Part shown: positions 1 to 13,008 of the stretch, in pieces
How positions within the stretch are numbered: the stretch's first letter is position 1
Layout: each line of letters opens with the position of its first letter
NCBI GenBank assembly: GCA_016184305.1
Contig: JACPCX010000158.1
Span: 1 to 13,008, forward strand
DNA: 13,008 bases
Direction of reading: 5' to 3'
From: Candidatus Rokuibacteriota bacterium
GTDB taxonomy: Bacteria > Methylomirabilota > Methylomirabilia > Rokubacteriales > CSP1-6
Notes under the pieces: model-generated
The model's input: only the letters and a program-made list of their open reading frames with translations
Told to the model about the DNA's origin: nothing
Database searches by the model: none
Made by a program: the position numbers and the translations under genes

Positions 1-237
1 GAACATCTCGTAGACGAAGCGCTGCCGGCGCATCTCGCCGTCGGAGAGCACATCCAGGCCCGCCTCGATCTGGTCCGCCACCGCGATGCGCGTGGCGTCC
101 TCCAGCGTCTCGTCCACGTCCTGGGGGCCGAAGCTCTGGTCGCGGATCTTCTCGCGCGCGGCCACGAGCCAGGCTGGGGAGGCGTAGCTCCCCACCCCCA
201 TCGTCGGCAGGAATGGCAGCCCGGGTCCCTTTGTCAT
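1..237 (-). CDS. Cobalamin-independent methionine synthase II (MetE C-terminal-like) family protein, 5' part; runs off the window edge
   Basis: Not in the ORF track; translated by hand from ATG at 237: MTKGPGLPFLPTMGVGSYASPAWLVAAREKIRDQSFGPQDVDETLEDATRIAVADQIEAGLDVLSDGEMRRQRFVYEMF. The 'T..vGSY' and 'Q..aGlD..sDGE.RR' motifs are typical of the family. Starts 4 nt after the livF-like stop. Confidence 0.85.
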   Translation of the reverse strand, partial: MTKGPGLPFLPTMGVGSYASPAWLVAAREKIRDQSFGPQDVDETLEDATRIAVADQIEAGLDVLSDGEMRRQRFVYEMF

Positions 238-241
238 CGGG

Positions 242-955
242 TCACAGCCCAAGATAGGCCTGCTTGATGTAGCCGCTCTGCAGGAGCTCGTCTCTGGAGC
301 CTCCCAGCGCGATTCGCCCGTTCTCGAGCACGTAGCCCCGATGCGACAGATGGAGCGCGCGGGCCACGTTCTGCTCCACCAGGAGGATCGTCGTTCCCTG
401 CCGGTTGATCTCTGCCAGGGTCTCGAAAATCATCTTCAGCACCACCGGGGCGAGCCCGAGACTCGGCTCGTCCAGCATGAGGAGCCGGGGTCTCGCCATC
501 AGCCCGCGCCCGATGGCGCACATCTGCTGCTCGCCGCCCGAGAGCGTCCCCGCCAGCTGGCCGTTGCGCTCCTGCAGCCGCGGGAAGAGCCGGAAGACCC
601 ACTCGAGCGTCTCGTGCCGGCGCGCCCGGGCCTCCCGGCCGCCGGCGCCCAGCTCGAGGTTCTCGCGCACCGTCATGCTGGGGAAGAGCTGGCGGCCTTC
701 GGGCACATGCGCCAGCCCCCGCGCCACGATCCGCGACGGCGACAGCCCGTCGAGCCGCTGGCCGTCCAGCTCGATCACGCCGCGGCGGACCGGCAAGAGC
801 CCGGTGATGGCCCGCAGCGTGGTGGTCTTGCCGGCGCCGTTGCCGCCGATGAGCGCCACCACCTCGCCCGTGCGCACCTCGAGGGAGACCTCGCGCACGG
901 CGGTGAGGTCGCCGTAGCCGACCTCGATGCCCTCAAGCCTGAGCAGTGTGGACAT
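242..955 (-). CDS. livF: LIV-family ABC transporter ATP-binding subunit (LivF-like)
   Basis: Walker A GGNGAGKTT, HVPEGRQLF, signature LSGGEQQM, Walker B LLMLDEPSLGLAP, ILLVEQN, C-terminal AYLG. Confidence 0.93.
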   Translation of the reverse strand: MSTLLRLEGIEVGYGDLTAVREVSLEVRTGEVVALIGGNGAGKTTTLRAITGLLPVRRGVIELDGQRLDGLSPSRIVARGLAHVPEGRQLFPSMTVRENLELGAGGREARARRHETLEWVFRLFPRLQERNGQLAGTLSGGEQQMCAIGRGLMARPRLLMLDEPSLGLAPVVLKMIFETLAEINRQGTTILLVEQNVARALHLSHRGYVLENGRIALGGSRDELLQSGYIKQAYLGL

Positions 956-1688
956 ATTCCTCGCCGAGATAGGCCTCGATCACGCGGGCGTCGCTGGCGA
1001 CGGCGCTCGGCGTCCCCTCCGCGATCTTCTCCCCGAAGGAGAGCACCACGATGCGGTGGGAGAGCGCCATGACGGCGCGCATGTTGTGCTCGATGAGAAG
1101 GATGGACACGCCGGACTCGTTGATGCCGGCGATGAGCCGGACGATGGCCTCGATCTCCGTCGCGTTGAGCCCCGCCACGACCTCGTCGAGCAAGAGGAGG
1201 GTGGGCTCCGTGGCCAGCGCCCGCGCCATCTCCAGACGCTTGCGGTCGGCCAGCGTGAGGCTCCCGGCCGCCACGGCCGCCTTCGGCGCGAGCCCGACCC
1301 GCTCCACCACCGCGCGAGCCTGCTCGAGCGCCTCGCGAGCATGCGCGTGGCGGGTGAGCGCGCCCACCTTCACGTTGTCGAGCACCGAGAGGTGAGGAAA
1401 GGGGCGGACGATCTGGAAGGTCCGCGCGAGCCCCTGCCGGCAGATCGCGTGCGGCTTGAGTCCCACGATGCTCCGGCCGCCGAAGCGGATCTCGCCCTTG
1501 TCCGGTCCGAGGAAGCCGGAGACGAGGTTGAAGACCGTGGTCTTCCCGGCGCCATTGGGCCCGATGAGCCCGAGCATCTCGCCCTCGGCCATGGCGAAAG
1601 ACAGGTCGCTCACGGCCTGGAGCCCCCCGAAACGCTTGGAGAGCCCGCGGACGTCGAGCAGGCTGCCGCCGCGCGCGTCCGGCGCCAT
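933..1688 (-). CDS. livG: LIV-family ABC transporter ATP-binding subunit (LivG-like)
   Basis: C-terminal part of ORF 933..2630. The start is reassigned to ATG 1688 (MAPDARGGSLLDVRGLSKRFGGLQAV), which overlaps the permease stop (TGATG). Motifs GPNGAGKTT, ARTFQ, LLLDE, LIEHNM, VIEAYLG. Confidence 0.92.
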   Translation of the reverse strand: MAPDARGGSLLDVRGLSKRFGGLQAVSDLSFAMAEGEMLGLIGPNGAGKTTVFNLVSGFLGPDKGEIRFGGRSIVGLKPHAICRQGLARTFQIVRPFPHLSVLDNVKVGALTRHAHAREALEQARAVVERVGLAPKAAVAAGSLTLADRKRLEMARALATEPTLLLLDEVVAGLNATEIEAIVRLIAGINESGVSILLIEHNMRAVMALSHRIVVLSFGEKIAEGTPSAVASDARVIEAYLGEEYVHTAQA

Positions 1689-2635
1689 CAGCCCCTCACC
1701 CTCAGGAGCAGCCGGCGGAGCGCCGGATACGCGCCCTGGGGCAGGAAGAGCACCACGCCGATCAGGAGCGCCCCGTAGACGATCAGGTGCGTGCCGGTCC
1801 AGCCGCCCTGGGAGAAGTAGGTGCGCGACAGCTCGGCCAGGGGGCTCAGGATGAACGATCCGAGGATCGGTCCGAGGATCGTGCCGGAGCCCCCGACGAT
1901 GGGGCGGATGACGATCTCCACGGACAGCGGGATGCCGAAGACCGAGTTCGGCTGCAGCGAGAAGAGGTAGAAGGCGTAGAAGGTGCCGCCGATGCCGGTC
2001 AGGAACGCCGAGACCACGATGGCCAGCATCTTGTACCGGAACGTGTCGACGCCCAGCGCCTCGCACGCGTTCTCGTCCTCGCGGATGGCCACGAGATAGG
2101 CGCCGAAGCGGTGGCGCTCGATCCAGGCAACCACGCCCGTGGCGAGGAGCATCAGCCCCAGCGAGACGTAGTAGTACACGCGGTTGTCCTGGAACTGGAA
2201 CTGGCGGGGATCGCCCGTGAAGGTGATGTACAGCCCCTGCGCCCCGCCGACCCAGTCCGTGTTGAGCGCGATGATGCGGAAGATCTCGGCGAAGGCCACC
2301 GTCAGGAGCACGAAGTAGAAGCCGCGCAGCCCGAAGCGGAAGCCGAGGTACCCGATCACCGCCCCGAGGGCGGCGGACAGGACCCCGCCCACGAGCATGC
2401 CGATCCACGGGGTGAGCCCCGCGTGGATCGACAGCATGGCCGAGGTGTAGGCGCCAAGGCCCACGAAGGCCGCGTGCCCCACGGACAGCTGTCCGGCGTA
2501 GCCGCCGATGATGTTCCACGCCTGCCCGAGGAAGGCGTAGAAGAAGATGAAGATGAAGACGGTGATGGCGTAGGAGCCCAGCACCGCCGGCAGGGCCAGC
2601 AGCACGGCGATCGCGCCGACCGCGGCCCACCTCAT
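1688..2635 (-). CDS. livM: LIV-family ABC transporter permease (LivM-like)
   Basis: Hydrophobic; motifs WNIIGGYAGQLSVGHAAFVGLGAY, LRGFYFVLLTVAF, AIREDENACEALGVD, GGSGTILGPILG. The ORF track starts at TTG 2641; ATG 2635 is preferred. Confidence 0.9.
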   Translation of the reverse strand: MRWAAVGAIAVLLALPAVLGSYAITVFIFIFFYAFLGQAWNIIGGYAGQLSVGHAAFVGLGAYTSAMLSIHAGLTPWIGMLVGGVLSAALGAVIGYLGFRFGLRGFYFVLLTVAFAEIFRIIALNTDWVGGAQGLYITFTGDPRQFQFQDNRVYYYVSLGLMLLATGVVAWIERHRFGAYLVAIREDENACEALGVDTFRYKMLAIVVSAFLTGIGGTFYAFYLFSLQPNSVFGIPLSVEIVIRPIVGGSGTILGPILGSFILSPLAELSRTYFSQGGWTGTHLIVYGALLIGVVLFLPQGAYPALRRLLLRVRG

Positions 2636-2645
2636 GGGCAACCGG

Positions 2646-3518
2646 TCATTCGCTGCCCTTCCCGAAGAGCCCGGCGGGCCGGAAGAGGAGAATGGCGATG
2701 AGGAGCGAGAAGCTCACCAGCTCCTTCATGGAGGGCGCCAGGAAGACAGCCCCCATCGACTCCGCCACGGAGACCAGCAGCCCCCCCACGAAGGCTCCGA
2801 GGAGGCTCCCCATGCCGCCGATGATGACGATGTTGAACGACGCCACCGACAGCGACAGCCCGCCGGCCGGCTGGAAGGGCAGGATGGGCGAGACGAGGGC
2901 TCCGGCGGCGCCGACGCAGGCGGCGCCGATGCCGAAGGCGACGGCGTAGACGCGGCGCACGTCGGTGCCGATCACCAGCGCGCCATAGGGATTGTCGGCC
3001 GCCGCCCGGACGGAGCGGCCGAGCGGGGTCCGGGCGAGAAAGAGATAGAGCGCGCCGGTGAGCAGGACGGCCAGGCCGAACGTCACGAGCCGCCCCACGT
3101 CCACGAAGATGGGGCCGAGCCACAGCGTGGAGGCGGTGAGCGCGGAGCGGACCCGCTGCGGGTCGGGGCCGAAGGCGACCAGCGCTGCGTTCTCGAGCAC
3201 CAGCGCCACGCCGAGCATGAGGAGGATCTGCATCTCGTGGGGGGCGTCCACGATCCGTTCCACGAGCGTCCGCTGCACCACGAACCCCACCACGAAGAGC
3301 CCCCCGGCGCACAGGACGAAGCCGGCGTATGGATCCACGCCGAGGCGCGTGGCGAGCATCCAGGCCAGGTACATCCCCCACACCATCATGTCGCCGTGCG
3401 CGAAGTTGACCACGCGCATGACGCCGAAGATGAGCGTGAGGCCCACGGCCATGAGGCTGTAGACCCCGCCGAAGAGGAGCCCGTTCAGGAGCCCCTGGCC
3501 GACGAGCGCCGCATCCAT
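2646..3518 (-). CDS. livH: LIV-family ABC transporter permease (LivH-like)
   Basis: NGLLFGGVYSLMAVGLTLIFGVMRVVNFAHG, RTPLGRSVRAAADN, IIGGMGSLLGA and LLFRPAGLFG are the typical BPD_transp_2 motifs. Confidence 0.92.
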   Translation of the reverse strand: MDAALVGQGLLNGLLFGGVYSLMAVGLTLIFGVMRVVNFAHGDMMVWGMYLAWMLATRLGVDPYAGFVLCAGGLFVVGFVVQRTLVERIVDAPHEMQILLMLGVALVLENAALVAFGPDPQRVRSALTASTLWLGPIFVDVGRLVTFGLAVLLTGALYLFLARTPLGRSVRAAADNPYGALVIGTDVRRVYAVAFGIGAACVGAAGALVSPILPFQPAGGLSLSVASFNIVIIGGMGSLLGAFVGGLLVSVAESMGAVFLAPSMKELVSFSLLIAILLFRPAGLFGKGSE

Positions 3519-3587
3519 ATCAGACCGTGCGCGTCCCCGCCCGCGCCCCGGGCCCGCGCCCCCAGCCGGCCCTGCCGTGCGGCGATA

Positions 3588-4871
3588 TCACCGCTTGGGA
3601 CGCGGGAAAACCGCCTTCTGCTGGGCGGCCTCCTTGGGCCACACGACCACGGGTTTCTGGCCCAGGATCTGGATCAGGGCGGTGGAGGCGTTGGGGTTGT
3701 CGCCGATCTCGTTGAACACCACCGGCCCCGTCGAGACCATGAGATTGGCGGTGAATCGGGTCTTCTTGATGGCGTCCACGATCGTGTCGGGGTCGGTGGA
3801 CTTCGCCCGCTCGAGCACGTCGGCGATGATCAGCATGCCGTCGTACGAGTAGCCCGAGTTGGTGTCCAGCGTCTTGCCGCCGGACCGCTTCAGATAGTCC
3901 TCGGCCAGCTTCCGGGCCCGGGGGTCCTTGAAGTTCGGCCACGGCACGCTGTCCATCACGTACTCGAGGTGCTCCTTGAGCACGGCGATCTGGCCGGCCT
4001 CGTAGAGCCCCGGGCTGCCGGGTCCGAGGACGCCCATGATCTCCACCCGCTGCTTGGCCAGCTCGGGGAGCAGGAGCTGGGCGCTCGCCGGGCGCGTGAT
4101 GGGAGCGATGATGTCGGGCTTGGCGGCCTTGGCGCGCGACACCTCGGTGGACAGGTCGGAGGGTGGCTCGGGCCACGGGATCACGTCCACGATCTCCCAG
4201 CCGGGACTGGCCGCCTTGTGGGCCGCCTGGAAGCCCTTCGCCTGGTTCTGCCCGAACAGGTCGTTGGCGTACATCAGGACCACGCGCTTGGGCGAGACCC
4301 CAGCCTCCTGGAAGATGGCGTTGAAGTACCGGACGGCGAGCTGGCCGAACATGGTGCCGGTGGGGAAGTTCCGGTAGACGTACTGGACCTTCTGCTGCCC
4401 CTCCCGCACCGCCTTGGCCACGTTGGCCGTGATCGGGTCGGCGGCGGCGATGTCGATGAGGAAAGGCACGCGGCGCTGCTGCACGACGGGCACCATGGCC
4501 GCCGCATCGCCGGAGCTGAACGGCCCCATGAGCATCTGGGCCCCCGCGTTGATGAGGCGCTCGGCCTCGGTGCGGGCCACGTCCGGCTTGCTCTGGGTGT
4601 CGCCGAGCAGGAGCTCGAGCCTGGCGCCGCCCAGGGACTTGATCCCGCCGGCGGCGTTGATCGCCTCGGCCGCGATCTGGGCGCTCAGGCGGCACGCCTG
4701 GCCCGGCTCGGCCAGCGGCCCGGTCACCCCGTGGATGACGCCGATCTTGACGGTCGGCGCCTGCGCGCGCAGGACGGCCGGGAAGCCCAGCGCCGCCGTC
4801 CCGGCAACGGCGCCGGCGGTCTTGAGGAAGGTGCGGCGGTGCAGCGTCTTGGGATCGTTGCGCTCGCTCAT
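3588..4871 (-). CDS. LIV-family (type I periplasmic) ABC substrate-binding protein with Tat signal peptide
   Basis: Start reassigned to ATG 4871 (SD-like AAGGGAG upstream). MSERNDPKTLHRRTFLKTAGAVAGTAALGFPAVLRAQ has a twin-arginine motif and an LRA|Q-type cleavage. Mature part: VKIGVIHGVTGPLAEPG...INAAGGIKSLGGARLELLLGDTQSKP. Confidence 0.9.
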   Translation of the reverse strand: MSERNDPKTLHRRTFLKTAGAVAGTAALGFPAVLRAQAPTVKIGVIHGVTGPLAEPGQACRLSAQIAAEAINAAGGIKSLGGARLELLLGDTQSKPDVARTEAERLINAGAQMLMGPFSSGDAAAMVPVVQQRRVPFLIDIAAADPITANVAKAVREGQQKVQYVYRNFPTGTMFGQLAVRYFNAIFQEAGVSPKRVVLMYANDLFGQNQAKGFQAAHKAASPGWEIVDVIPWPEPPSDLSTEVSRAKAAKPDIIAPITRPASAQLLLPELAKQRVEIMGVLGPGSPGLYEAGQIAVLKEHLEYVMDSVPWPNFKDPRARKLAEDYLKRSGGKTLDTNSGYSYDGMLIIADVLERAKSTDPDTIVDAIKKTRFTANLMVSTGPVVFNEIGDNPNASTALIQILGQKPVVVWPKEAAQQKAVFPRPKR

Positions 4872-4908
4872 GGTCGTGGTCTCCCTTGCCTGTGGCGGTT
4901 TCGGCCGG

Positions 4909-6060
4909 TCAGAGCCGGCCCACGAGCTGCTGGGCGATGACCACCCGCTGGATCTGGTTGGTCCCCTCGTAGATCTGCATGATCTTGGCATCGCGCATGA
5001 AGCGCTCGACCGGGAACTCCCGAGTGTAGCCGGCGCCGCCGAAGACCTGCACGGCATCGGTGGTCACGCGCATGGCCGCATCCGCCGCGAAGCATTTCGC
5101 CATGGACGACTCGAGCGAGGTCCCGGCGGCGCCCCGGTCCACCAGGCTCGCCACGTGGTGGACCATGAGCCGGGCGCCGTGGACCTGCATGGCCATGTCG
5201 GCCAGCATGAACTGGATGCCCTGGAACGCGGCGATGGGCTGGTTGAACTGCCGCCGCTCCCGCGCATAGCCCACCGCGGCGTCCAGCGCCGCCTGGGCGA
5301 CGCCGACCGCGGTGGCGCCCGTCATGGGCCGGGTGAAGTCGAGCGTGCGCATGGCGATCTTGAACCCTTCGCCCTCGGCCCCGAGACGGTTCTCCACCGG
5401 GACCTCGCAGTCCTGCAGATGGAAGGCCACCGTGGGCGAGGCCCGGATGCCCATCTTCTTTTCCTTCTTCCCGACCGCGAAGCCCGGGAAGCCCGGCTCG
5501 ACGAGGAACGCGGTGATCCCCTTCGCCCCCTTGCCCCGGTCCAGCGTGGCGAAGAGCGTGATCACCCCGGCGTTGGAGCCGTTCGAGCACCAGAGCTTGG
5601 TCCCGTTCAGGATGTAACGGTCGCCCTTCCGCACGGCCGTCGTCTCGAGGGCGGCCGCATCGGACCCGGCGGCGGGCTCCGAGAGCGAGTAGGCGGCGAG
5701 GATCTCCCCTGCCGCCAGCCGCGGGAGATACCGGCGCTTCTGCTCCTCCGTTCCCGCCAGCAGGATCGGGTAGCCGCCCAGCGGCGTGGCGCCCCAGTTG
5801 GTGGCCGTCCCGGCGCATGCCCAGGCGAGCTCCTCCGCCACCAGCGAGACGCCCATGGCTCCCGCATCGATGCCGCCGTATTCCTCCGGCACCCAGATCC
5901 CCATCATCCCCTGCTGGGCCAGGAGCTTCATGATCTCTTCCGGATAGGTCTCGGTCTCGTCGTGGTAGGCGGCGACCGGCGCGATCTTCTCCCGCGCGAT
6001 CTCCCGCGCCAGATCGCGGATGGCGCGCTGCTCGTCCGTGAGGTAGTAGAGCTCTCTCAT
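4909..6060 (-). CDS. Acyl-CoA dehydrogenase (short-chain/butyryl-CoA type)
   Basis: YSLSEPAAGSD, LNGTKLWCSNG, KMGIRASPT, RRQFNQPI, VQVFGGAGY and catalytic Glu in QIYEGTNQIQR. SD AGGAG lies 6 nt before the ATG. Confidence 0.95.
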   Translation of the reverse strand: MRELYYLTDEQRAIRDLAREIAREKIAPVAAYHDETETYPEEIMKLLAQQGMMGIWVPEEYGGIDAGAMGVSLVAEELAWACAGTATNWGATPLGGYPILLAGTEEQKRRYLPRLAAGEILAAYSLSEPAAGSDAAALETTAVRKGDRYILNGTKLWCSNGSNAGVITLFATLDRGKGAKGITAFLVEPGFPGFAVGKKEKKMGIRASPTVAFHLQDCEVPVENRLGAEGEGFKIAMRTLDFTRPMTGATAVGVAQAALDAAVGYARERRQFNQPIAAFQGIQFMLADMAMQVHGARLMVHHVASLVDRGAAGTSLESSMAKCFAADAAMRVTTDAVQVFGGAGYTREFPVERFMRDAKIMQIYEGTNQIQRVVIAQQLVGRL

Positions 6061-6115
6061 GGCCTGCTCCTGCTTCGCACCGGGGCTCCCGGCCTCGCCG
6101 CCGTCACCGTCATCC

Positions 6116-6973
6116 TCACTTCGCGCTGTGGTCGTAAAACCCCTGGCCGCTCTTGCGACCGAGCCGCCCGGCCATCACCATGCGTTTCAGGAGCGGGGGT
6201 GGGGCGTAGCGTGGCTCGCGGAACTCCTCGAACATGACCTCGGCCACGAACATGGTGGTGTCGAGCCCCACCAGGTCGAGGAGCGTGAACGGCCCCATGG
6301 GGTAGCCGCAGCCGAGCTTCATGGCCTGGTCGATGTCCTCGAGGGTGGCGAGTCCGCCCTCGTACACCCGGATCGCGTCCAGGAGGTACGGCACCAGGAG
6401 CCGGTTCACGATGAAGGCCGTCGAGTCCTTCGTCTTCACCGGCACCTTGCCGATGGCCTGCACCCACTCGTAGGCCGCGAGCACGCTCTTGTCGCCGGTG
6501 AGGAGGGACTGCACCACCTCCACGAGCTTCATCAGCGGCACCGGGTTGAAGAAGTGCAGGCCCAGCACCTGCCCGGGGCGCCTGGTCGCCGCGGCCATGG
6601 CGGTGACGTTGCACGACGAGGTGTTGGAGGCAAGCAGCGCATGCGGCGGGCAGATGGCGTCGAGCCTGGCGAAGGTCTCGTTCTTCAGCGGCTGGTTCTC
6701 GGTGATCGCCTCGATGACGAGGTCGCACTCCTTGAGGGCGTCGAAGCTGGTCGCGCCCCGGAGCCGCCCGAGGATCTCCTTCTTGCCCGCCTCGTCCATC
6801 CTCGCCTTGGCGACGAGGGCATCGAGGTTCTTTCTGATCGAACCGAGCCCCTTGTCCAGCAGTTCCTGGTTCGCCTCGACCACCGTGGTCGGAAAGCCCG
6901 CCTGGGCGGACACCTGGGCGATCCCGGACCCCATCAGCCCGCATCCGATGACTCCGACATTCTTGATGGCCAT
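6116..6973 (-). CDS. hbd: 3-hydroxybutyryl-CoA / 3-hydroxyacyl-CoA dehydrogenase
   Basis: Rossmann motif VGVIGCGLMGSGIA, VIEAITEN, LASNTSS, catalytic His in GLHFFNPVP, GYPMGPF, GRLGRKSGQGFY. Start moved to ATG 6973 (SD AAAGGAG upstream). Confidence 0.92.
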   Translation of the reverse strand: MAIKNVGVIGCGLMGSGIAQVSAQAGFPTTVVEANQELLDKGLGSIRKNLDALVAKARMDEAGKKEILGRLRGATSFDALKECDLVIEAITENQPLKNETFARLDAICPPHALLASNTSSCNVTAMAAATRRPGQVLGLHFFNPVPLMKLVEVVQSLLTGDKSVLAAYEWVQAIGKVPVKTKDSTAFIVNRLLVPYLLDAIRVYEGGLATLEDIDQAMKLGCGYPMGPFTLLDLVGLDTTMFVAEVMFEEFREPRYAPPPLLKRMVMAGRLGRKSGQGFYDHSAK

Positions 6974-7004
6974 GCCTCGGTGCTCCTTTGTCACGCCTTA
7001 CTGT

Positions 7005-7010
7005 AGTTTA
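7005..7010 (-). promoter_or_regulatory. Possible sigma70 -10 element (TAAACT) upstream of hbd
   Basis: TAAACT in a short AT-rich patch about 30 nt upstream of the hbd ATG. There is no consensus -35; that position falls inside repeat copy A. Confidence 0.3.
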
Positions 7011-7260
7011 CTTCGCGTTGCGGTTGGGCCTCTTCGCGCCTCCGGCGCTCATCGGACGCCCGCACCACCGTGTGGCCTCTGACCGGGTCGCCTGGATGTG
7101 GATGCCTTCGCGTTGCGGTTGGGCCTCTTCGGGCCTCTGGCCCTTATTCATCTATCTTGGTTGAATGTGACTGACTCTGCCTGGCGGTTGGGCCTCTTCG
7201 CGCAAGCGCTCATCGGGGCGTCCCCATCACCGTCTGGCCTCTTCGGGCTAGCGCTCACGG
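7011..7260. repeat. Cluster of four related hairpin-forming intergenic repeats (REP/MITE-like or structured RNA)
   Basis: Identical 26-mer CTTCGCGTTGCGGTTGGGCCTCTTCG at 7011-7036 and 7106-7131. The 20-mer GCGGTTGGGCCTCTTCGCGC occurs at 7020-7039 and 7184-7203. Core GGCCTCTTCG occurs at 7027, 7122, 7191 and 7236. GCGCTCATCGG and CACCGTNTGGCCTCT are shared by copies A and C. Confidence 0.85.
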
Positions 7261-7290
7261 TGGCAGCGCGGGGGTGACGGCTGCCGTCGG

Positions 7291-7665
7291 CTAGCGGCGG
7301 GTGTAGCCCGGCAGGGGCAGCGGCGCGAGCTTTGCCTCGTGGGCCAGATCCCCCTCCGGGCAGGCGTTCTTGATGACCAGGCCCAGGTTGCTCCGTCCGT
7401 AGCGGACCGATCCGTCGGGCAGCACCTCCTGAGCATCGGCCCGTCGGGCCGGCACCGGGCCTGCGTCGCGCCGGAGCGACTCCCTGAACGCCGTCTCCTG
7501 TGATTCCACCGGCTGACGCATGAGGTTGAGGAGCGTCGGGCCGGCCGGTGGGATCGCGCTCGTCTCGGCCTGCGCCGGCGCAGGCGAGCCCCAGAGGAAC
7601 GAGGCCAGCGCCAGCGTCCCGATCGGAAGCGCACAGCGCCGCGCAGCGCCGCGCCGCTCAGCCAT
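7291..7665 (-). CDS. Hypothetical secreted protein (124 aa)
   Basis: ATG 7665 overlaps the thiolase stop (ATGGCTGA). Signal-peptide-like N-terminus MAERRGAARRCALPIGTLALASFLWGSPAPAQA with an AQA cleavage motif. Fills the gap after the thiolase on the coding strand. Confidence 0.65.
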   Translation of the reverse strand: MAERRGAARRCALPIGTLALASFLWGSPAPAQAETSAIPPAGPTLLNLMRQPVESQETAFRESLRRDAGPVPARRADAQEVLPDGSVRYGRSNLGLVIKNACPEGDLAHEAKLAPLPLPGYTRR

Positions 7666-8860
7666 GGAGCGCCTCGAAGACCATGGCAATCCCCTGCCCG
7701 CCGCCGATGCAGAGGGAGGCAAGCCCGTACCGCCCGCCGCGCCGGCGCAGCTCGAAGAGGGTGGTGAGCGCCAGCCTGGCCCCTGAGGCCCCGATGGGGT
7801 GCCCCAGGGCAATGGCCCCGCCGTTGACGTTGGTCTTGTCGCGGTCCAGGCCGAGCTCGCGCTCCACGGCCAGGTACTGCGCCGCGAACGCCTCGTTGAT
7901 CTCCACCACGTCCAGGTCGCGCACCTCGAGTCCCGCCCGGTGGAGGGCCTGCCGGGAGGCCGGTACCGGGCCGATCCCCATGATCTCGGGATCCACGCCG
8001 GCCACCCCCCAGGAGAGGATCCGCCCCAGCGGGGAGGCGCCCAGCTCGCGCGCCCGGCGCCGCGTGGTCACGATCATGGCCGCTGCCCCGTCATTGATCC
8101 CGCTGGCATTGCCCGCCGTGACGACTCCATTCTCCTTGAAGGACGGCTGCAGTGCGCCCAGCTTCTCGACGCTGGTCTCCGCCTTGATGTGCTCGTCGCG
8201 GTCCACCTGCACGACACCGCCGCGCGTCTTGACGGGAACGGCCACGATCTCCTCGGCGAAGTAGCCCTTGTCGCGGGCAGAGGCGGCCCGCTGATGGCTC
8301 AGATACGCGAAATCGTCGGACTCTTTCCGGGAGATCCCCTGGCGTGCGGCCAGGTTCTCGGCGGTGATGGCCATGGGGATCTGCATGTACGGGTCGCCGA
8401 GGCCGAGCCACAGGTTGTCTTCGAGCTGCCCCTGGCGGAAGCGCAGTCCCCAGCGCGCCCCCCGGATGATATGCGGCTGGCCGGACATGCTCTCGGTTCC
8501 CCCCGCCAGCACCACCTCCGCCTCGCCGAGCCTGATCATCTGCGCCGCGGTGACCACGGCCTGCAGCCCTGACCCGCAGAGCCGGTTGACGGTGAGCCCC
8601 GGGACGCCGATGGGGCAGCCCGCCTTGAGCGCCACGTGCCGCGCCAGATAGGCATCCTCGCCTGAGCCCTGCAGCACGCAGCCGAACACCGCATGCTCCA
8701 CGTGATCGGGGGCCACGCCGCCGCGCTCGAGAGCGGCACGCGCCGCATGCACCCCGAGGTCCACTGCGCCCAGGTCCTTGAGGGCACCGCCGAAGTCGCC
8801 GAAGGGGGTGCGCGCCCCACGCAGGACGACGATGTCCTGATCACCGGATGACGGAGTCAT
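7658..8860 (-). CDS. Acetyl-CoA C-acyltransferase (thiolase)
   Basis: ARTPFG, catalytic Cys in TVNRLCGSGLQ, VTAGNASGINDGAAA, EINEAF, GGAIALGHPIGASG, LCIGGGQG. SD AAGGAG. Confidence 0.96.
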   Translation of the reverse strand: MTPSSGDQDIVVLRGARTPFGDFGGALKDLGAVDLGVHAARAALERGGVAPDHVEHAVFGCVLQGSGEDAYLARHVALKAGCPIGVPGLTVNRLCGSGLQAVVTAAQMIRLGEAEVVLAGGTESMSGQPHIIRGARWGLRFRQGQLEDNLWLGLGDPYMQIPMAITAENLAARQGISRKESDDFAYLSHQRAASARDKGYFAEEIVAVPVKTRGGVVQVDRDEHIKAETSVEKLGALQPSFKENGVVTAGNASGINDGAAAMIVTTRRRARELGASPLGRILSWGVAGVDPEIMGIGPVPASRQALHRAGLEVRDLDVVEINEAFAAQYLAVERELGLDRDKTNVNGGAIALGHPIGASGARLALTTLFELRRRGGRYGLASLCIGGGQGIAMVFEALHG

Positions 8861-8889
8861 TCACGCTCCTTGTGAGCCAGAGGAATGTC

Positions 8890-9414
8890 CTACTCGTACA
8901 CGATGAGCGATTCCAGGTCGTAGCCGGGGAGCCGCTCCCGGCCCTTGAGGAAGGCCAGCTCGATGAGGAACGCCGCCCCCACGACCTTCCCGCCGAGCCG
9001 CTCGACGAGCCTGAGCGTGGCGGCCATGGTCCCCCCGGTGGCGAGCAGGTCGTCCACCACCAGGACCTGCTGGCCGGGTCGGATGGCATCTTCGTGAATG
9101 GCCAGAACATCACGCCCGTACTCCAGCGCGTACTCCTCCTCGATGGTCTTGGCCGGCAGCTTGCCCCGCTTCCGGACGGGCACGAACCCGGCCTTGAGCT
9201 GATGGGCCAGGGCGCCGCCGAAGATGAAGCCACGGGACTCGACGCCCACCACCAACTCCACCATGGCCGTGTGGTACTTGCTCGCCAGGTGATCGATCAC
9301 GGAAGCCCACGCGGGACCGTCCTTGAGGAGCGTGGTGATGTCCTTGAAGAGGATTCCTTCGGTGGGAAAATCCTTGATGTCTCGGATCTTTGAGCGAAGC
9401 TCGGCGACGTTCAT
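8890..9414 (-). CDS. apt: Adenine phosphoribosyltransferase
   Basis: DFPTEGILFKDITTLL, GVESRGF, VRKRGKLP, YALEYG and the PRPP-binding motif VVDDLLATGGT; 174 aa. Confidence 0.97.
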   Translation of the reverse strand: MNVAELRSKIRDIKDFPTEGILFKDITTLLKDGPAWASVIDHLASKYHTAMVELVVGVESRGFIFGGALAHQLKAGFVPVRKRGKLPAKTIEEEYALEYGRDVLAIHEDAIRPGQQVLVVDDLLATGGTMAATLRLVERLGGKVVGAAFLIELAFLKGRERLPGYDLESLIVYE

Positions 9415-9425
9415 GACGGGAGCCG

Positions 9426-9455
9426 ATGTTACTGCGAGCAGCCGCCGTGGCGCAA
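9426..9455 (-). promoter_or_regulatory. Putative sigma70 promoter for apt and downstream genes
   Basis: TTGCGC (9455-9450), 18-nt spacer, TAACAT (9431-9426), then 11 nt to the apt ATG. Confidence 0.45.
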
Positions 9456-9465
9456 CACGAAATCT

Positions 9466-9486
9466 CCCCGGCGTGGCGCGCCGGAG
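9466..9486 (-). terminator. GC-rich hairpin after the HAD gene (possible weak terminator or stabiliser)
   Basis: CCGGCG-5 nt-CGCCGG stem (9468-9484) a few nt after the stop, followed by AGATTTC, which is only a poor U-tract. Confidence 0.3.
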
Positions 9487-9489
9487 CGC

Positions 9490-10227
9490 CTAGAAAAAGC
9501 CGTTCAGGCGCTCCGGTAGCTCGGCCAGATCGGTCACCACCAGGTCGGCGTGGTCAGCGCCAGGACGCCCCGCCGCCGCGTAGTGGATGGCGCGCATCCC
9601 GGCGCCGCGGGCCCCCGCCACGTCGTCCACGGGATTGTCCCCCACATGGGCCGTCTGGGATGGTGTCGCGCCCGCGCGGGCCAGAGTCCGGCGGAAGATC
9701 TCGGGATCCGGCTTCCGGTAGCCGACCTCGTCGGAGTACGAGATGACGGAGAAGTGGCGGAGGAGGTCGTGGGCTTCGAGCACTCGTCTGAGCATGATCC
9801 CGGGGGTGCGCCCGGTATTGGAGATGATCCCCAGCGTGAGCCCCCGGACGGCGAGCCCCCGGACCGCCTCGGCGGCACCCGACTGAAGCGCCGGCGGGAA
9901 GGAAAGCACCGGGGAGATGTAGGCCGTCACGGTGGCTTCCAGGATGTCGTCCGCCAGGCGATCGGCCGCTCCCGGCACGGCGCAGTCGAGGACGAGCCGC
10001 ACCTGCTCGCGGTAGGTCGGATCGCGATGCCGGCTCCAGAAGCGCTCCTGCAGGACCGTCAGGGACCGGTCGTACGCCTCCTCGACCTCCTCGACGGCCA
10101 GTGGCGAGCCGACACCGGCGAGCGCCGCCCTCAGGGCGCCCACCCGGAGGGCGCGCTGGGCGTTCAGGTTCTCGGGAGAGTCCTTGACCAGGGTCTCCCA
10201 GAAGTCGAAGGTGACGGTGGAGATCAC
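9490..10227 (-). CDS. HAD-superfamily hydrolase (paralog 2)
   Basis: Motif I TFDFWETL, motif II IISNT, motif III YRKP, motif IV HVGDNPVDDVAGA. The GTG start overlaps the upstream stop (GTGA). Confidence 0.9.
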   Translation of the reverse strand: MISTVTFDFWETLVKDSPENLNAQRALRVGALRAALAGVGSPLAVEEVEEAYDRSLTVLQERFWSRHRDPTYREQVRLVLDCAVPGAADRLADDILEATVTAYISPVLSFPPALQSGAAEAVRGLAVRGLTLGIISNTGRTPGIMLRRVLEAHDLLRHFSVISYSDEVGYRKPDPEIFRRTLARAGATPSQTAHVGDNPVDDVAGARGAGMRAIHYAAAGRPGADHADLVVTDLAELPERLNGFF

Positions 10228-10970
10228 GACTGAGCCCCCAGGCGGGCAACAGCGTCCGGCAATTCAGCGAGCCCGCCGATGACCATGTCTGGCGCCTCCG
10301 CGGCCGCCGATCTGCCGGTCGCGACCACCTGGATCACGCGGAGCCCGGCGTTGCGCGCGCCCTGCACGTCCAGCACCGCGTCGTCTCCCACGTGGACCGC
10401 CTCGGCGGCCTCGATACCGAGCTTGTCGAGCGTCAGGCGAAAGATCTCGGCGGCGGGCTTGCGCACCCCGACCTCGTCCGAGAAGGTCAGGTGGGTGAAG
10501 GAGGCGAGGAGCCCGTGCCCCTCGAGGATCTTCCGGAGGGCCACGCCGGGCGTCCGCATGGTGTTGGACACCACGGCCAGCACGATGCCGCGCGCGGCGA
10601 GCCGGCGGAGCCCCTCGGCCGCTCCCTCATCGGCCCGCGGCGGGACCAGGAGCGCCGGGCGCGCGTAGGCCTCGATGAGCGCGTCCAGGGTGCCGTGGGC
10701 CACGCGGGCGGACAGCCCCGCCTCGGCCCCCTCGAGGAGGCTCGTCACGTGGCGCGCCACGGGCACGTCGCGGTTCTGGGACCACACCCAGCCCAGCTCC
10801 CGTCCGGACACCTCGTAGCCACGTAGCAGGTCGCGCGTCGCCACCGACAGCCCCGCTGCCCCCAGGATCGTCTGGAAGTCCGCGAGCCGCCGCTGCCGGT
10901 AGCGATCATCGGCGCTCGGCCCCTCGAAGACGAGCGTTCCCCAGAAGTCCACGGTCACCGCGCGGATCAC
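10224..10970 (-). CDS. HAD-superfamily hydrolase (paralog 1)
   Basis: Start reassigned to GTG 10970 (VIRAVTVDFWGTL), matching the paralog's N-terminus. Motifs VVSNT, VRKP, HVGDDAVLDVQGA. Confidence 0.88.
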   Translation of the reverse strand: MIRAVTVDFWGTLVFEGPSADDRYRQRRLADFQTILGAAGLSVATRDLLRGYEVSGRELGWVWSQNRDVPVARHVTSLLEGAEAGLSARVAHGTLDALIEAYARPALLVPPRADEGAAEGLRRLAARGIVLAVVSNTMRTPGVALRKILEGHGLLASFTHLTFSDEVGVRKPAAEIFRLTLDKLGIEAAEAVHVGDDAVLDVQGARNAGLRVIQVVATGRSAAAEAPDMVIGGLAELPDAVARLGAQS

Positions 10971-10983
10971 GATCGGGCGTGCC

Positions 10984-11757
10984 TCATTCGAACCGGGGCT
11001 TGCGCTTCTCGAGGAAGGCCTGCATGGCCTCCCGCGGCTCCCCGGTGGCAAAGGCCTGGGCGAGGGCATTGATGCCGTATTCCACGGCCGTCCGCTGGTC
11101 GGTGTTGCGCCAGCGGATGATCAGCTCCTTCTGCAGCCGCAGCGCCGTCGGCGCGCACTCGAGAATGGGCGCGACCAGCGCCTCCGTGACCGCCTGGAGC
11201 TCATGGGGCGGCGCCACGCGGTTCACGAGCCCCCACTCGAGCGCCCGCGCCGCCGTGATGCCCTCGCCGGTGAGCAGGGCCTCGGCCGCGCGCGCGGGGC
11301 CGATGAGCCCTGAAAGGAGCGCCGCCTCGATCACCGACGGGATCCCCACGCGGATCTCGGGCAGCCCCATCCGCGCCTCGGTGGAGGCCGTCCGCATGTC
11401 GCAGGCCATGGCGAGCTCGAAGCCCGCCCCGAAGCAGTGGCCATTCATCATGCAGATGGTGGGGAAGGGCGCCTCGTGGACGGCGTGGATGGCCTGGTGG
11501 AGCAGCGTGATGAAGGGTTTCGCCGCGGCCGGCGTGAGATCCCGCAAGTACTCGAGCTGCATCCCGGCCGTGAGGACGGGGCCGGCCCCGGTGATGACGG
11601 CCGCCCGCACCTGGGTGTTGCGCGCGAGCCCCTCGACGGCGTCGCGCAGCGAGCGGATCAGCTCCGGCACCAGCAGGTTGAGCGGCGGTCGGTCGATGGT
11701 GACCCACGCGCAGCCGCCGCGATTGTCGACCGTGAGACTGCCGTCCATGGGCGCCAT
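10984..11757 (-). CDS. Enoyl-CoA hydratase/isomerase (crotonase) family protein
   Basis: Start ATG 11757 overlaps the rhodanese stop (TGATG); ATG 11748 is an alternative. Motifs VTIDRPPLN, GHCFGAGFELAMACD, GLPEIRVGI, ALEWGLVNRV, AFLEKRKPRF. Confidence 0.92.
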   Translation of the reverse strand: MAPMDGSLTVDNRGGCAWVTIDRPPLNLLVPELIRSLRDAVEGLARNTQVRAAVITGAGPVLTAGMQLEYLRDLTPAAAKPFITLLHQAIHAVHEAPFPTICMMNGHCFGAGFELAMACDMRTASTEARMGLPEIRVGIPSVIEAALLSGLIGPARAAEALLTGEGITAARALEWGLVNRVAPPHELQAVTEALVAPILECAPTALRLQKELIIRWRNTDQRTAVEYGINALAQAFATGEPREAMQAFLEKRKPRFE

Positions 11758-11954
11758 CAGTACCGTCTCATCTGGGGGTCCACATTCCGGGCCCAGCCGT
11801 CGAGCCCGCCGTCGAGGTTCCTCACCCTGGCGAAGCCCAGGCCGCGGAGATAGCCAACCACGGCGGCGCTGCGAACCCCGTGGTGGCAGTACACGACGAT
11901 CTCCTCCTGGGAGTCGAGCTCGTCTGTCCGGTGCTCGAGCTCCTCGATGGGAAT
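11757..11954 (-). pseudogene. 5'-truncated single-domain rhodanese/sulfurtransferase
   Basis: IPIEELEHRTDELDSQEEIVVYCHHGVRS...NLDGGLDGWARNVDPQMRRY keeps the active-site Cys loop. It lacks the roughly 40 N-terminal residues containing the DVRxxxE...hIxGA motif. The only in-frame ATG (11969) lies in foreign, attC-like sequence. Confidence 0.75.
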
Positions 11955-11955
11955 G

Positions 11956-11998
11956 CCTGTCGGTGGCATGGCGTTGTGAGACGGTCACGGGGTTAAGC
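11956..11998 (-). mobile_element. Degenerate left half (R''-L'') of an integron attC-like site downstream of hicB
   Basis: Minus strand reads GTCTCAC (one mismatch from RYYYAAC; 11982-11976), AACGC (5-nt spacer), CATGCCAC (8-nt L''-like box), CGAC, and then ends at the rhodanese remnant. A perfect RYYYAAC (GCTTAAC, 11998-11992) also contains the hicB stop. Confidence 0.5.
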
Positions 11999-12205
11999 GA
12001 AGATCAGACGCCGTCCTTTCGGTACGGGGATTGGATCACCGAATTCCTTCGCCGTGTCGAGCCAAAGACGAATGGCCTCCTGCGCGCTAGCGAGCGCGGC
12101 CTCCTGCGTTGGGCCATGTGCCGCACAACCCGGCAGCTCCGGCACCTCGGCAACGAACATCTGATCTTCCTCGCTCCAGTAGATGATGAGCTCGTACTTG
12201 TTCAT
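11993..12205 (-). CDS. hicB: HicB-family antitoxin (short, 70 aa)
   Basis: KYELIIYWSEEDQMFVAEVPELPGCAAHGPTQEAALASAQEAIRLWLDTAKEFGDPIPVP is the typical HicB partial RNase H fold. ATGA overlap with hicA. Confidence 0.92.
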   Translation of the reverse strand: MNKYELIIYWSEEDQMFVAEVPELPGCAAHGPTQEAALASAQEAIRLWLDTAKEFGDPIPVPKGRRLIFA

Positions 12206-12456
12206 GACTCCTCACCTCCAAGCCGGTACTTCACGAGTACGGCTCGTACCTGACGCACTTGATACGGCTTCGCGTCACTTCCCTCGCGCTGGAGATTGAT
12301 CTTTTCCTCGACCCCGGCCCTGCGAAAGATGTGATGGCTGCCCCGCACCCGCATCTCAAAGCCGAAGCTACCGAGCAAGTGGCACAGATCGTCAAACCGG
12401 ATGTTCGCGTCGGAAACTCCGCTGAGCACCCGCCGAAGGGTCTCCTCCTTGATCAT
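12202..12456 (-). CDS. hicA: HicA-family toxin (mRNA interferase)
   Basis: NIRFDDLCHLLGSFGFEMRVRGSHHIF contains the catalytic GSH motif; NLQ...AKPYQVRQV; 84 aa; translationally coupled to hicB. Confidence 0.9.
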   Translation of the reverse strand: MIKEETLRRVLSGVSDANIRFDDLCHLLGSFGFEMRVRGSHHIFRRAGVEEKINLQREGSDAKPYQVRQVRAVLVKYRLGGEES

Positions 12457-12462
12457 GAAGCT

Positions 12463-12468
12463 ATTCTA
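12463..12468 (-). promoter_or_regulatory. Putative -10 element (TAGAAT) for leaderless hicA transcription
   Basis: TAGAAT lies exactly 6 nt upstream of the hicA ATG, with no Shine-Dalgarno sequence in between. Confidence 0.5.
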
Positions 12469-12494
12469 CGCCAATCGTACTCGCTGGTTGATTC

Positions 12495-12598
12495 GCCCAA
12501 CGCCGCGCGTGAGCGGCAGCGCGGGCCGGACGCCCAGCCGACGACCGCACCCGCCAGAGCGAGCGCCGACCGCTCGAGCCGCGTCGAGGCCCGACGGT
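12495..12598 (-). mobile_element. Right part (central hairpin, L', R') of an integron attC-like site upstream of hicA
   Basis: Minus strand ends GCTCACG-CGCGGC-GTTGGGC (L'-like 7-mer, 6-nt spacer, perfect GTTRRRY at 12501-12495). It is preceded by an imperfect palindrome: CGGGCC (12593-12588) pairs with GGCCCG (12527-12522), and GACGC (12585-12581) with GCGTC (12533-12529). No RYYYAAC occurs between this hairpin and the ATPase stop. Confidence 0.6.
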
Positions 12599-12621
12599 CT
12601 GAAGGCCATCACCTACACGCG

Positions 12622-13008
12622 TCACTCCGACGGCAGCAGGACGGAGGTCTCCGGCGAGACCTCGACCTTCACCTCGTCGCCGGCCTGGAAGCTCCGCCCC
12701 TGCACGGCCGAGGTGATCATCTCCACCCGGACCATCCCGCCCGGGATGGCCACGTCGTAGAGCTGGCGCGCGCCCTCGAAGACGTACCCGGCCACCGTCC
12801 CCGGGATGCCCCCCGGAGCGAGCGCCGCCTCCTCGATGCGCAGCGCCTCCGGGCGCAGGCACAGGAGCCCGCGCGCGCCCACGCTCCAGCTGTGGCCCCC
12901 CGCTGCGACGGGCAGGCGCGCCCCGCCGTCGGTTTGCACCACGACTCCGGTCTCGCGCAGCTCCACCACCCGGACCGGGACCAGGTTGGCGGCGCCGACG
13001 AACTCGGC
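12622..13008 (-). CDS. ABC transporter ATP-binding protein (PotA/FbpC/MalK type), C-terminal TOBE region; 5' end outside the window
   Basis: The frame is open to the window edge: AEFVGAANLVPVRVVELRETG...LCLRPEALRI...GTVAGYVFEGARQLYDV...GDEVKV. It has the typical 'AeFvG.aN' and 'lRPE' motifs. Confidence 0.85.
   Translation of the reverse strand, partial: AEFVGAANLVPVRVVELRETGVVVQTDGGARLPVAAGGHSWSVGARGLLCLRPEALRIEEAALAPGGIPGTVAGYVFEGARQLYDVAIPGGMVRVEMITSAVQGRSFQAGDEVKVEVSPETSVLLPSE

Follow-up and report, generated by a model that had tools for sequence, protein, structure and literature searches.

A hicAB toxin-antitoxin pair in a Rokuibacteriota metabolic gene cluster as a probable integron cassette stranded outside any integron

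How does a toxin-antitoxin (TA) gene pair come to lie within a metabolic gene cluster, between partial integron recombination sites and with no integrase nearby? The question is raised by the window, i.e., the whole stretch of 13,008 nucleotides that was analysed (contig JACPCX010000158.1 of the Candidatus Rokuibacteriota assembly GCA_016184305.1, positions 1 to 13,008 of the forward strand). Read on the minus strand the window holds the end of an ABC-transporter gene, 165 nt free of genes, hicA, hicB, 23 nt, a rhodanese open reading frame (ORF) and the gene for an enoyl-CoA hydratase (crotonase). It is likely that hicAB is an integron cassette that resides outside any integron, and that illegitimate recombination, rather than an integrase, brought it in as a slice of a cassette array. 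In order, the donor slice would have consisted of the end of a preceding cassette (cassette 0), the attC site of that cassette (attC-0), the whole hicAB cassette and the first ~27–30 nt of its own attC site (attC-1). A single replacement of the microhomology type would then have joined the slice between the ABC-transporter gene and the rhodanese/enoyl-CoA-hydratase operon, which would have deprived the rhodanese gene of ~40 codons at its start and given the ABC gene a new stop. An earlier note on this DNA had also taken hicAB for a stranded cassette, either a slice of an array or an excised circular cassette opened inside its own attC. In the following, positions are those of the window, G denotes a genome, C one of its contigs, L a locus or metagenome contig and X a sequencing run; G000 is the window's own genome, which is 88.8% complete. 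The insert and its two genes are:

11956–12628, minus strand: whole insert, 673 bp, with bounds taken from empty-site contigs of other metagenomes
12456–12202, minus strand: hicA, toxin gene, 84 amino acids (aa); Pfam HicA_toxin (PF07927), 29.9 bits (cut-off 27)
12205–11993, minus strand: hicB, antitoxin gene, 70 aa; HicB_lk_antitox (PF15919), 37.4 bits (cut-off 27), and UPF0150, 33.7 bits

The extent of the insert is known from alleles that do not carry it. Contigs from four public runs were aligned to positions 11700–12750. On the right side, contigs of X5 and X9, which stem from other studies, and of X2 are ~99% identical to the window until 11955 and then diverge, and on the minus strand the divergent sequence encodes the missing N-terminal part of the rhodanese (...LSRLDHSIH/IPIEEL, translated from a loose end of 30 letters). 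On the left side, contigs of X5 and X7 arrive at 12629 from a different sequence, and the end of the ABC protein reads ...PSAE versus ...PSE, each followed by the stop. As the empty-site contigs leave the window at 11955 and 12629, the insert is placed at 11956–12628; the earlier note had given 11956–12598, of which the right bound stands and the left bound is moved to 12628. In the host, ~200 bp were replaced, from the penultimate ABC codon through the intergenic region to rhodanese codon ~40. In relatives that share the host flanks neither hicAB nor the half-sites are present, which is what an insertion would lead one to expect. For instance, G006:C62, from another genus, has the ABC gene followed by a full rhodanese (profile positions 1–101) and the crotonase without the insert; the left junction could not be placed from G006, which shows no homology past the ABC stop. 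Two independent copies of the left junction were found. One is a 174-nt contig of X2 that is 100% identical over 12494–12667, and the other is G002:C171, from another species of the same genus, which at 88% identity extends from the ABC end across the 165-nt region into hicA, where the contig ends. The base composition also sets the insert apart. Its GC content is 62.4% (420/673) against 69.8% in the left and 75.3% in the right flank, and a sliding profile stays at 0.58–0.62 across 11900–12499 versus 0.69–0.79 on either side. The hand counts of the earlier note (34/60 and 35/60 in the insert, 46/60 in the host) were exact. Within the insert hicAB has 59.3% GC and attC-0 together with the tail described below 76%, with the step at the R' box of attC-0.

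Relatives of this hicAB pair are found as integron cassettes. HicB is 87–91% identical at the amino acid level to proteins of Acidobacteriota metagenome-assembled genomes (Bryobacterales, Terriglobia, Solibacter), which are the closest among the matches listed and whose GC content resembles that of the insert. The homologues considered are the best 80 of at least 186 HicB-encoding stretches, with one genome per species and at least 600 pattern-matching stretches listed. Their nucleotide similarity to the window is limited to the two genes, 12472–11966 at most. At several hicB loci GTCTAAC or GTCCAAC lies 10–11 nt past the stop and is followed by an imperfect palindrome of 60–70 nt and then by GTTRGAC, i.e., a textbook attC. 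Ten such sites were aligned (alignment A3); their consensus folds as an attC, and 13 of its 22 pairs show compensatory changes. The covariance model R1 built from A3 found 60 attC sites over 98 loci, and among the best 80 of at least 186 loci it placed an attC 10–20 nt past the hicB stop in 11; seven of these 11 loci had served to train R1, and the independent four are L059, L115, L121:3220 and L122:3220. The close hicAB homologues that bear an attC span Acidobacteriota and other phyla, and on G186:C36 the hicAB cassette lies within a run of 13 attCs, all on one strand, and this contig also carries a fragment of intI. Homologues of the window's pair are thus found as cassettes in arrays.

Downstream of hicB the window retains part of such a site:

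11956–11982, minus strand: 5' half of attC-1, with R'' GTCTCAC at 11982–11976, a spacer and L'' (ATGCCACC...), cut near the hairpin apex
11970–11963, minus strand: L''-like CATGCCAC, followed by CGAC

The remainder of attC-1 is its first ~27–30 nt (R''-spacer-L''), and the cassette therefore has no complete 3' attC. Its R'' box is found 10 nt past the hicB stop, at the same distance as in the full attCs of the homologues. The 27-mer at 11982–11956 shares 20 of its 27 positions with the attC of L086, and this level is reached by 34 of 6,418,078 genome positions when any of seven hicB-associated attCs is allowed as the partner. When all 8,789 RYYY[A/C]AC boxes of the genome are scored by their next 20 nt the half-site ranks third, outranked only by two attCs of the same genome, on C224 and C229. 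A copy of the hicAB block in G001 has GTCTAAC where the window has GTCTCAC. On metagenome contig L142 the same tail runs on into a complete but degenerate attC of 54 nt, which scores 8.1 bits. In this L142 site (974–1027, minus strand) R'' is GTCTCAC and R' is GTGAGCG, so that the normally invariant AAC and GTT are both changed, to CAC and GTG, and are still paired; either compensation or conversion of one hairpin arm by the other could account for this.

Upstream of hicA the following features were recognised:

12495–12596, minus strand: attC-0, decayed attC of the preceding cassette, ~100 nt
12501–12495, minus strand: R' GTTGGGC, read from the sequence, with a 6-nt spacer at 12507–12502
12514–12508, minus strand: L'-like GCTCACG; the L' core GCCGCTCAC is at 12517–12509
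within 12584–12565, minus strand: L''-like CTCGAGCGG; the R'' at ~12592–12585 is corrupted
12597–12628, minus strand: tail, 32 nt between the left junction and the start of attC-0, also present in G002:C171

To judge from these boxes the upstream site is a decayed whole attC and not a clean half, because a corrupted R''/L'' half is also present there. This departs from the earlier note, according to which no R''/L'' existed upstream: the 5' half (~12591–12565) scores 11.7 bits, and a fraction of 6.4e-5 of the genome positions scores as high. This half includes CTCGAGCGGTCGG, ~60 nt farther upstream, which is similar to the L'' of attCs in the same genome and which pairs with the L' core through GAGCGG and CCGCTC. 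The L' core GCCGCTCAC is in register with the GCCGCT[G/C]A[C/T] of four attCs of the same genome (C229:10064, C224:17720, C229:10755, and C20:57). With the preceding 19 nt scored, the site ranks 23rd among the 1,456 GTTRRRY boxes of the genome, and an nhmmer search with the 3' half ranks it 46th of 743 genome matches, as the only such match on the contig. The R' box lies 38 nt ahead of the hicA ATG, and in the homologues L053, L065, and L114 it lies 41–47 nt before the inferred start; an R' box at −80 to −27 is found in 5 of 51 homologous loci where 0.03 is expected per locus. The 5' boundary of the cassette thus falls at the G/TTRRRY of the preceding site, as indicated by GTTGGGC, the GC step and the L' register. 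In G002 the L'' of attC-0 carries a 9-nt deletion, which fits DNA under no constraint. The 32-nt tail, presumably the end of the preceding cassette, provides the ABC ATPase gene with its last codon(s) and its TGA stop. All of the boxes named in the earlier note (GCTCACG, GTTGGGC, GTCTCAC, CATGCCAC, and CGAC) are present, with some coordinates corrected.

Integrons occur in the lineage to which the window belongs. Of 41 relatives, 11 have an intI gene over the curated cut-off of TIGR02249, among them the congeneric G001 and G002, as against none of 14 control genomes, and attCs recognised by R1 were found in 31 of the 41 relatives as well as in this genome. These tallies include the unpublished genome G012 and become 10/40 for intI and 30/40 for attC without it. 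The window's own genome has attCs on C224 (two) and C229 (at 7051, 7853, and 10013) and weaker attC-like sites on C136. It has eight tyrosine-recombinase matches, none of which is on the contig of the window and none of which exceeds the integron-integrase cut-off, in keeping with the absence of a nearby integrase claimed before. Fragments of intI are present in it. On C229 (L037, 909–2057) an ORF of 382 aa matches positions 65–160 only of the integrase model, is fused to unrelated sequence and is followed by attC cassettes, and the genome's own integron looks decayed. A second N-terminal integrase fragment is situated at the extreme end of C170. DNA of hicAB was found in 4 of 183 genomes of the same order, and among these 183 genomes no copy lay in an array.

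With its homologues found as cassettes, integrons present in the lineage and an empty site in existence, the view of hicAB as a stranded cassette has held, and the manner of its arrival can be read from the junctions. Integrase events (attC x attI, attC x attC, attG) join at the R' box between G and TT, as stated in the portion of Loot et al. that is used here (bioRxiv 10.1101/2022.09.11.507474). In the window neither junction is found at this crossover point, nor is either of them therefore as expected for integrase-mediated insertion at an attG or other secondary site. The left junction (12628/12629) is located 127 nt upstream of the R' box, past attC-0, and the right junction (11955/11956) within the L''/apex part of attC-1. 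Positions 11954–11955 are compatible with both the host allele and a donor of the L142 type, which corresponds to 2 nt of microhomology. An illegitimate route is favoured as the junctions are off the G/TT point, 2 nt are shared and host DNA was deleted, and as one event suffices. The joining would have been of this microhomology type, and the source would have been an array of this lineage. The affinities of the parts differ, the upstream attC being like this genome's own and hicAB with attC-1 like the cassettes of Acidobacteriota. The array slice suggested in the earlier note is consistent with the second decayed attC upstream and with the position of the junctions, and the latter also agrees with its suggestion of a non-canonical route into a metabolic cluster. 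As neither attC is whole, the cassette should no longer be movable by an integrase.

The same block is present at other loci. In G001:C209 positions 12432–11970 are found at 95% identity behind an ABC permease gene, without the promoter and the first eight hicA codons and with 13 nt of attC-1 left; 131 nt follow, and then a nitrilase gene cut to profile positions 188–254. This nitrilase is whole in G000:C132, G002:C86, and G003:C74. A third arrangement, at the same nitrilase locus, is seen in L142 and in a 585-nt contig of X5. It extends from at least 12523, in the 3' arm of attC-0, through hicAB and continues with the whole degenerate attC-1, ~100 nt and the last ~45 nitrilase codons. The downstream break in attC-1 is consequently at +13 in G001:C209, at ~+30 in the window and after +54 nt in L142.

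Other TA genes have been found at the same two loci, i.e., the rhodanese and nitrilase loci carry different TA pairs in different relatives. In L042 (G000:C132, 352–2563) a gene for a ParE-like toxin and a small upstream ORF are found between a full nitrilase and a 5'-truncated nitrilase copy. In L003/L019 (G002:C128, 37–821) a different TA pair, DUF433/RHH-like and DUF5615 PIN-like, adjoins the crotonase at 860; about the last 13 rhodanese codons remain there and no attC was found. As C171 of G002 ends within hicA behind the ABC gene, G002 either has tandem TA modules or its site was hit twice.

A number of observations weigh against hicAB being a captured slice of an array. R1 found no whole attC across the window, its best match (11.7 bits, E = 0.31) being at 4629–4682 in an unrelated gene, and on sub-stretches cut at the presumed breaks it gave at most 2.2 bits and no truncated matches. 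The whole of attC-0 scores 1.9 bits with the covariance model, which is not an attC, and its 3' half gives merely 6.3 bits with nhmmer (E = 91 genome-wide). The site after hicB is not among the 695 genome matches of a generic 5'-half nhmmer profile, and its R'' has CAC in place of the conserved AAC triplet. No R1 attC stands beside hicB at 69 of the 80 homologous loci, so that the hicAB clade is not always cassette-borne. The right junction, between the attC half and the rhodanese, was found in this assembly only, and the single X2 contig across 11918–11925 is the empty-site allele. Run X1, in which 96% of the sampled words occur, may be the source sample. All genomes compared are metagenome bins, the donor array was not found, and the three contexts cannot be ordered by nested deletions, L142 having more of attC and less of nitrilase than G001. 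The silence of R1 on the half-sites is not decisive because a structure model cannot score half a hairpin, and the half-sites were for this reason tested by sequence. With regard to the attC check proposed in the earlier note, neither half nor the whole site scores with the model, and each half is attC-like by sequence.

Some other features are no evidence for a cassette. The upstream imperfect hairpin, which the earlier note had named, does contain GCTCACG, the spacer and GTTGGGC, and its fold is no better than that of shuffled sequence (z = 0.66; 149 of 200 shuffles fold equally well). Bare GTTRRRY boxes number 14 in the window against an expectation of 7.6 ± 2.8, and at least 14 occur in 4 of 200 shuffles. 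No attC family exists in Rfam, and an E-value scan of 11700–12800 returned only chance matches to microRNA and long non-coding RNA (lncRNA). Three of the 14 GTTRRRY boxes are supplied by a dispersed repeat containing GGTTGGGCCTCTTCG, of which three copies and a fourth partial copy are found at 7014–7250 (plus strand) in a gene-free stretch. No tandem repeats were found within 6800–7400. Across the genome a 15-mer of this repeat was counted 20 times, spread over 11 contigs, and G001:C2 contains a tandem pair.

The flanks of hicAB could have come about in other ways. Insertion of the cassette by an integrase at an attG or other secondary site, followed by deletions that took away the 3' part of attC-1 along with the 5' end of the rhodanese gene and altered the left side, is unlikely. 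It would draw on integrases and attCs that are common in the lineage and on processes that the consulted part of Loot et al. (bioRxiv 10.1101/2022.09.11.507474) reports, namely insertion at GWT sites, imprecise excision and single attCs lacking an integron-integrase (SALINs). On this route the left junction should join a host G to TTRRRY and the right junction the G of attC to host sequence, and the observed junctions are elsewhere; at least two extra deletions with exactly these ends would be needed. A mis-joining of hicAB sequence to the rhodanese-crotonase operon during assembly is highly unlikely. The genome is a metagenome bin, the right junction is confined to this assembly, and one study contains both empty-site populations and populations that carry hicAB at a different locus, all of which would suit an artefact. 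The left junction is nevertheless confirmed by a per-run contig and by another species, and the 2 nt shared at the right junction are too little for a k-mer mis-join. Moreover, the ABC and rhodanese-crotonase genes are natural neighbours (G006), so that any insert reached from the ABC gene has to stop short of the crotonase.

Still less credible is an ordinary horizontally acquired hicAB with no integron past, whose flanks resemble attC by chance in GC-rich DNA. TA modules are mobile, bare boxes are common, R1 finds no attC and the hairpin folds no better than shuffles, which is what chance would give. It would however leave unexplained that R'' is in positional register with the full attCs of the homologues, that the half-sites rank 3rd of 8,789 and 23rd of 1,456, and that the same tail extends to a whole degenerate attC in L142. 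The least credible explanation is the one that the earlier note had set beside the array slice, an excised circular hicAB cassette that was opened inside its own attC and then ligated, so that the two flanks are the two arms of one attC. The order of the boxes, L'-R' before the genes and R''-L'' after them, is as expected for such an opened circle. When rejoined, the arms fold at −10.5 kcal/mol without any R''/R' pairs, while 52 real attCs fold at −17.0 ± 3.9 with only 3 of the 52 weaker than the rejoined arms. Mismatched arms give −11.1 ± 3.1 and 1,467 of 2,652 such pairs do as well, i.e., the moderate pairing of the two halves into one permuted attC is no better than that of unrelated attC halves. 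The upstream site has an L''-like partner of its own, and its L' is like this genome's attCs while the downstream half is like the hicB cassettes of Acidobacteriota. The opened circle is rejected because the arms do not pair and differ in affinity.

If hicAB was captured as a slice of an array, one may speculate further, with more doubt than conviction, that the lineage has a second, integrase-independent route for cassettes, above all for TA cassettes, in which attC hairpins break arrays and the pieces are patched in elsewhere. The released pieces, bounded by partial attCs, would enter a few chromosomal spots by microhomology and truncate the starts of host genes. That the hairpins might be break-points is suggested by the three break positions in attC-1 and by the two loci with different TA pairs. 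If this is true, genome surveys based on whole attCs undercount the traffic of cassettes.

That cassettes occur outside integrons is already known from clusters of attC sites lacking an integrase (CALINs), SALINs, insertions at secondary or attG sites, and fused cassettes. Cury and co-workers reportedly described isolated cassettes in 2016, as SALINs and small CALINs. The locus is like SALIN and CALIN elements in that a cassette is found outside an integron, with no integrase near, in a lineage with integrons and possibly with its own promoter. It is unlike them as they have at least one attC by the IntegronFinder model and arise by insertion at GWT; here there is no covariance-model attC and no intI on the contig, neither junction coincides with the crossover point, and the insert took the place of host DNA. 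The methods of SALIN/CALIN surveys would miss this locus. It behaves like an isolated TA cassette and has neither the model-detectable attC that defines SALINs and CALINs nor the junctions at R' that mark attG insertion. According to the excerpted text of Loot et al. (bioRxiv 10.1101/2022.09.11.507474), cassettes insert efficiently at genomic GWT sites, their imprecise excision changes the chromosome, and 2,469 genomes contain isolated cassettes (SALINs). The array of Vibrio cholerae carries 19 TA cassettes with their own promoters, as given in the part of Richard et al. (2024; PMC11023631) used for this comparison. As far as that part goes, these cassettes and the window have in common a TA pair with its own promoter, an attC straight after the second gene and a loss that is expected to be penalised ('cassette loss killing'). 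The V. cholerae cassettes are located beside intIA and are excisable, whereas the window's pair is non-excisable and lies in a fatty-acid/ABC cluster of an uncultured GC-rich lineage of soil and groundwater. Fused gene cassettes arise by partial or total loss of attC, according to the passages at hand of a 2015 article (F1000Res 2015, PMC4670013). With such cassettes the window shares a partly deleted attC and a permanent join to the next sequence; in those passages the join is to the next cassette of a class 1 integron, and in the window it is to a host gene that gains its start codon from the attC remnant. A limited literature search returned no account of cassettes relocated with two broken attCs, nor of integrons in this lineage.

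The pair itself appears to be intact. The genes hicA and hicB are adjacent, co-oriented and overlap by 4 nt, and both domains of a hicAB type II TA system are present. As in such systems the toxin gene comes first and is overlapped by the antitoxin gene, and the short HicB of 70 aa, a form without DNA-binding domain, is the sole difference in sequence. Both reading frames are open throughout, and HicA keeps the conserved GSHH, which we take to be the motif of the HicA family. The homology to many loci at the nucleotide level begins at 12443–12472, which makes the ATG at 12456 the conserved start of hicA. One promoter element was found:

12463–12468, minus strand: −10 box TAGAAT, 6 nt ahead of the hicA ATG, read from the sequence

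In 27 of 51 homologous loci a TAnAAT is found in the 25 nt that precede the inferred start of hicA, with 0.009 expected per locus; a consensus scan for two-hexamer promoters and for terminators gave no sites in 11900–12700. Since TAGAAT is only 6 nt before the ATG and is found in the same place in homologues, it suggests that the hicA transcript is leaderless or nearly so and starts from the cassette's own promoter, by which the module would be driven. The pair probably still acts as an addictive TA system, with HicA as an RNase and HicB as its inhibitor. An addictive module would resist deletion, which would explain why the fragment has persisted. Transcription of hicAB may also continue into the crotonase operon. 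Among the sequencing runs listed as containing this DNA, none was of RNA. A second hicAB paralogue, 66–67% identical, is found at L014 (G000:C152, 1119–1502) and on G001:C49 and has no attC beside it.

The cassette would thus have left its array with its cargo and promoter and become invisible to the attC models on which surveys rely. The locus offers a dated case, at the level of the junctions, of a cassette that would have entered a core metabolic cluster without an integrase, with empty and occupied alleles coexisting in nature. This agrees with the notion that, when arrays break up, addictive TA cassettes are the pieces likeliest to survive. It also links the cassette pools of two soil phyla rich in uncultured members, through HicB proteins that are 87–91% identical and a similar 5' half of attC. 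Current views of integrons are not overturned by this, and the picture of the isolated cassette gains one route.

The host genes next to the insert are the following:

11969–11757, minus strand: rhodanese remnant ORF, 70 aa; positions 45–101 of 102 only of Pfam Rhodanese (PF00581)
10984–11757, minus strand: enoyl-CoA hydratase (crotonase), downstream host gene; Pfam ECH_1, 152 bits
12622–13008, minus strand: 3' end of the ABC-transporter ATPase (TOBE), upstream host gene, which extends beyond the window; Pfam TOBE_2, 43.9 bits

The ATG and first five codons of the rhodanese remnant come from the attC remnant, and the rest is the C-terminal 57% of the domain. A complete rhodanese fold (~100 aa) is not encoded at 11969–11757, whereas the full domain is present in G006 and in the empty-site contigs, and without 44 profile positions the remnant is most likely dead. 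The ATG of the enoyl-CoA hydratase overlaps the rhodanese stop, and the two genes are syntenic in relatives of at least 10 genera. The stop of the ABC gene is at 12624–12622, and in G006:C62 this gene adjoins the rhodanese and crotonase genes. In that contig (L015, 853–1287 and 975–2003) the rhodanese frame overruns its expected stop and the crotonase frame opens far upstream, which could be an assembly frameshift or a fused gene. Further genes on the same strand of the window encode two HAD hydrolases, a phosphoribosyltransferase, a thiolase, an acyl-CoA dehydrogenase and an ABC system of the branched-chain type.

The integrons of the lineage have a layout of their own. In class 1 integrons the array is upstream of and divergent from intI, and an 'inverted integrase' layout is known in some other phyla. 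A strict regular-expression scan for attC on the flank of the relatives' intI genes opposite to the array side found none. The attC arrays of the lineage begin ~600–800 nt past the 3' end of intI, on the same strand (G035:C261, G002:C106, G024:C184, and G001:C4).

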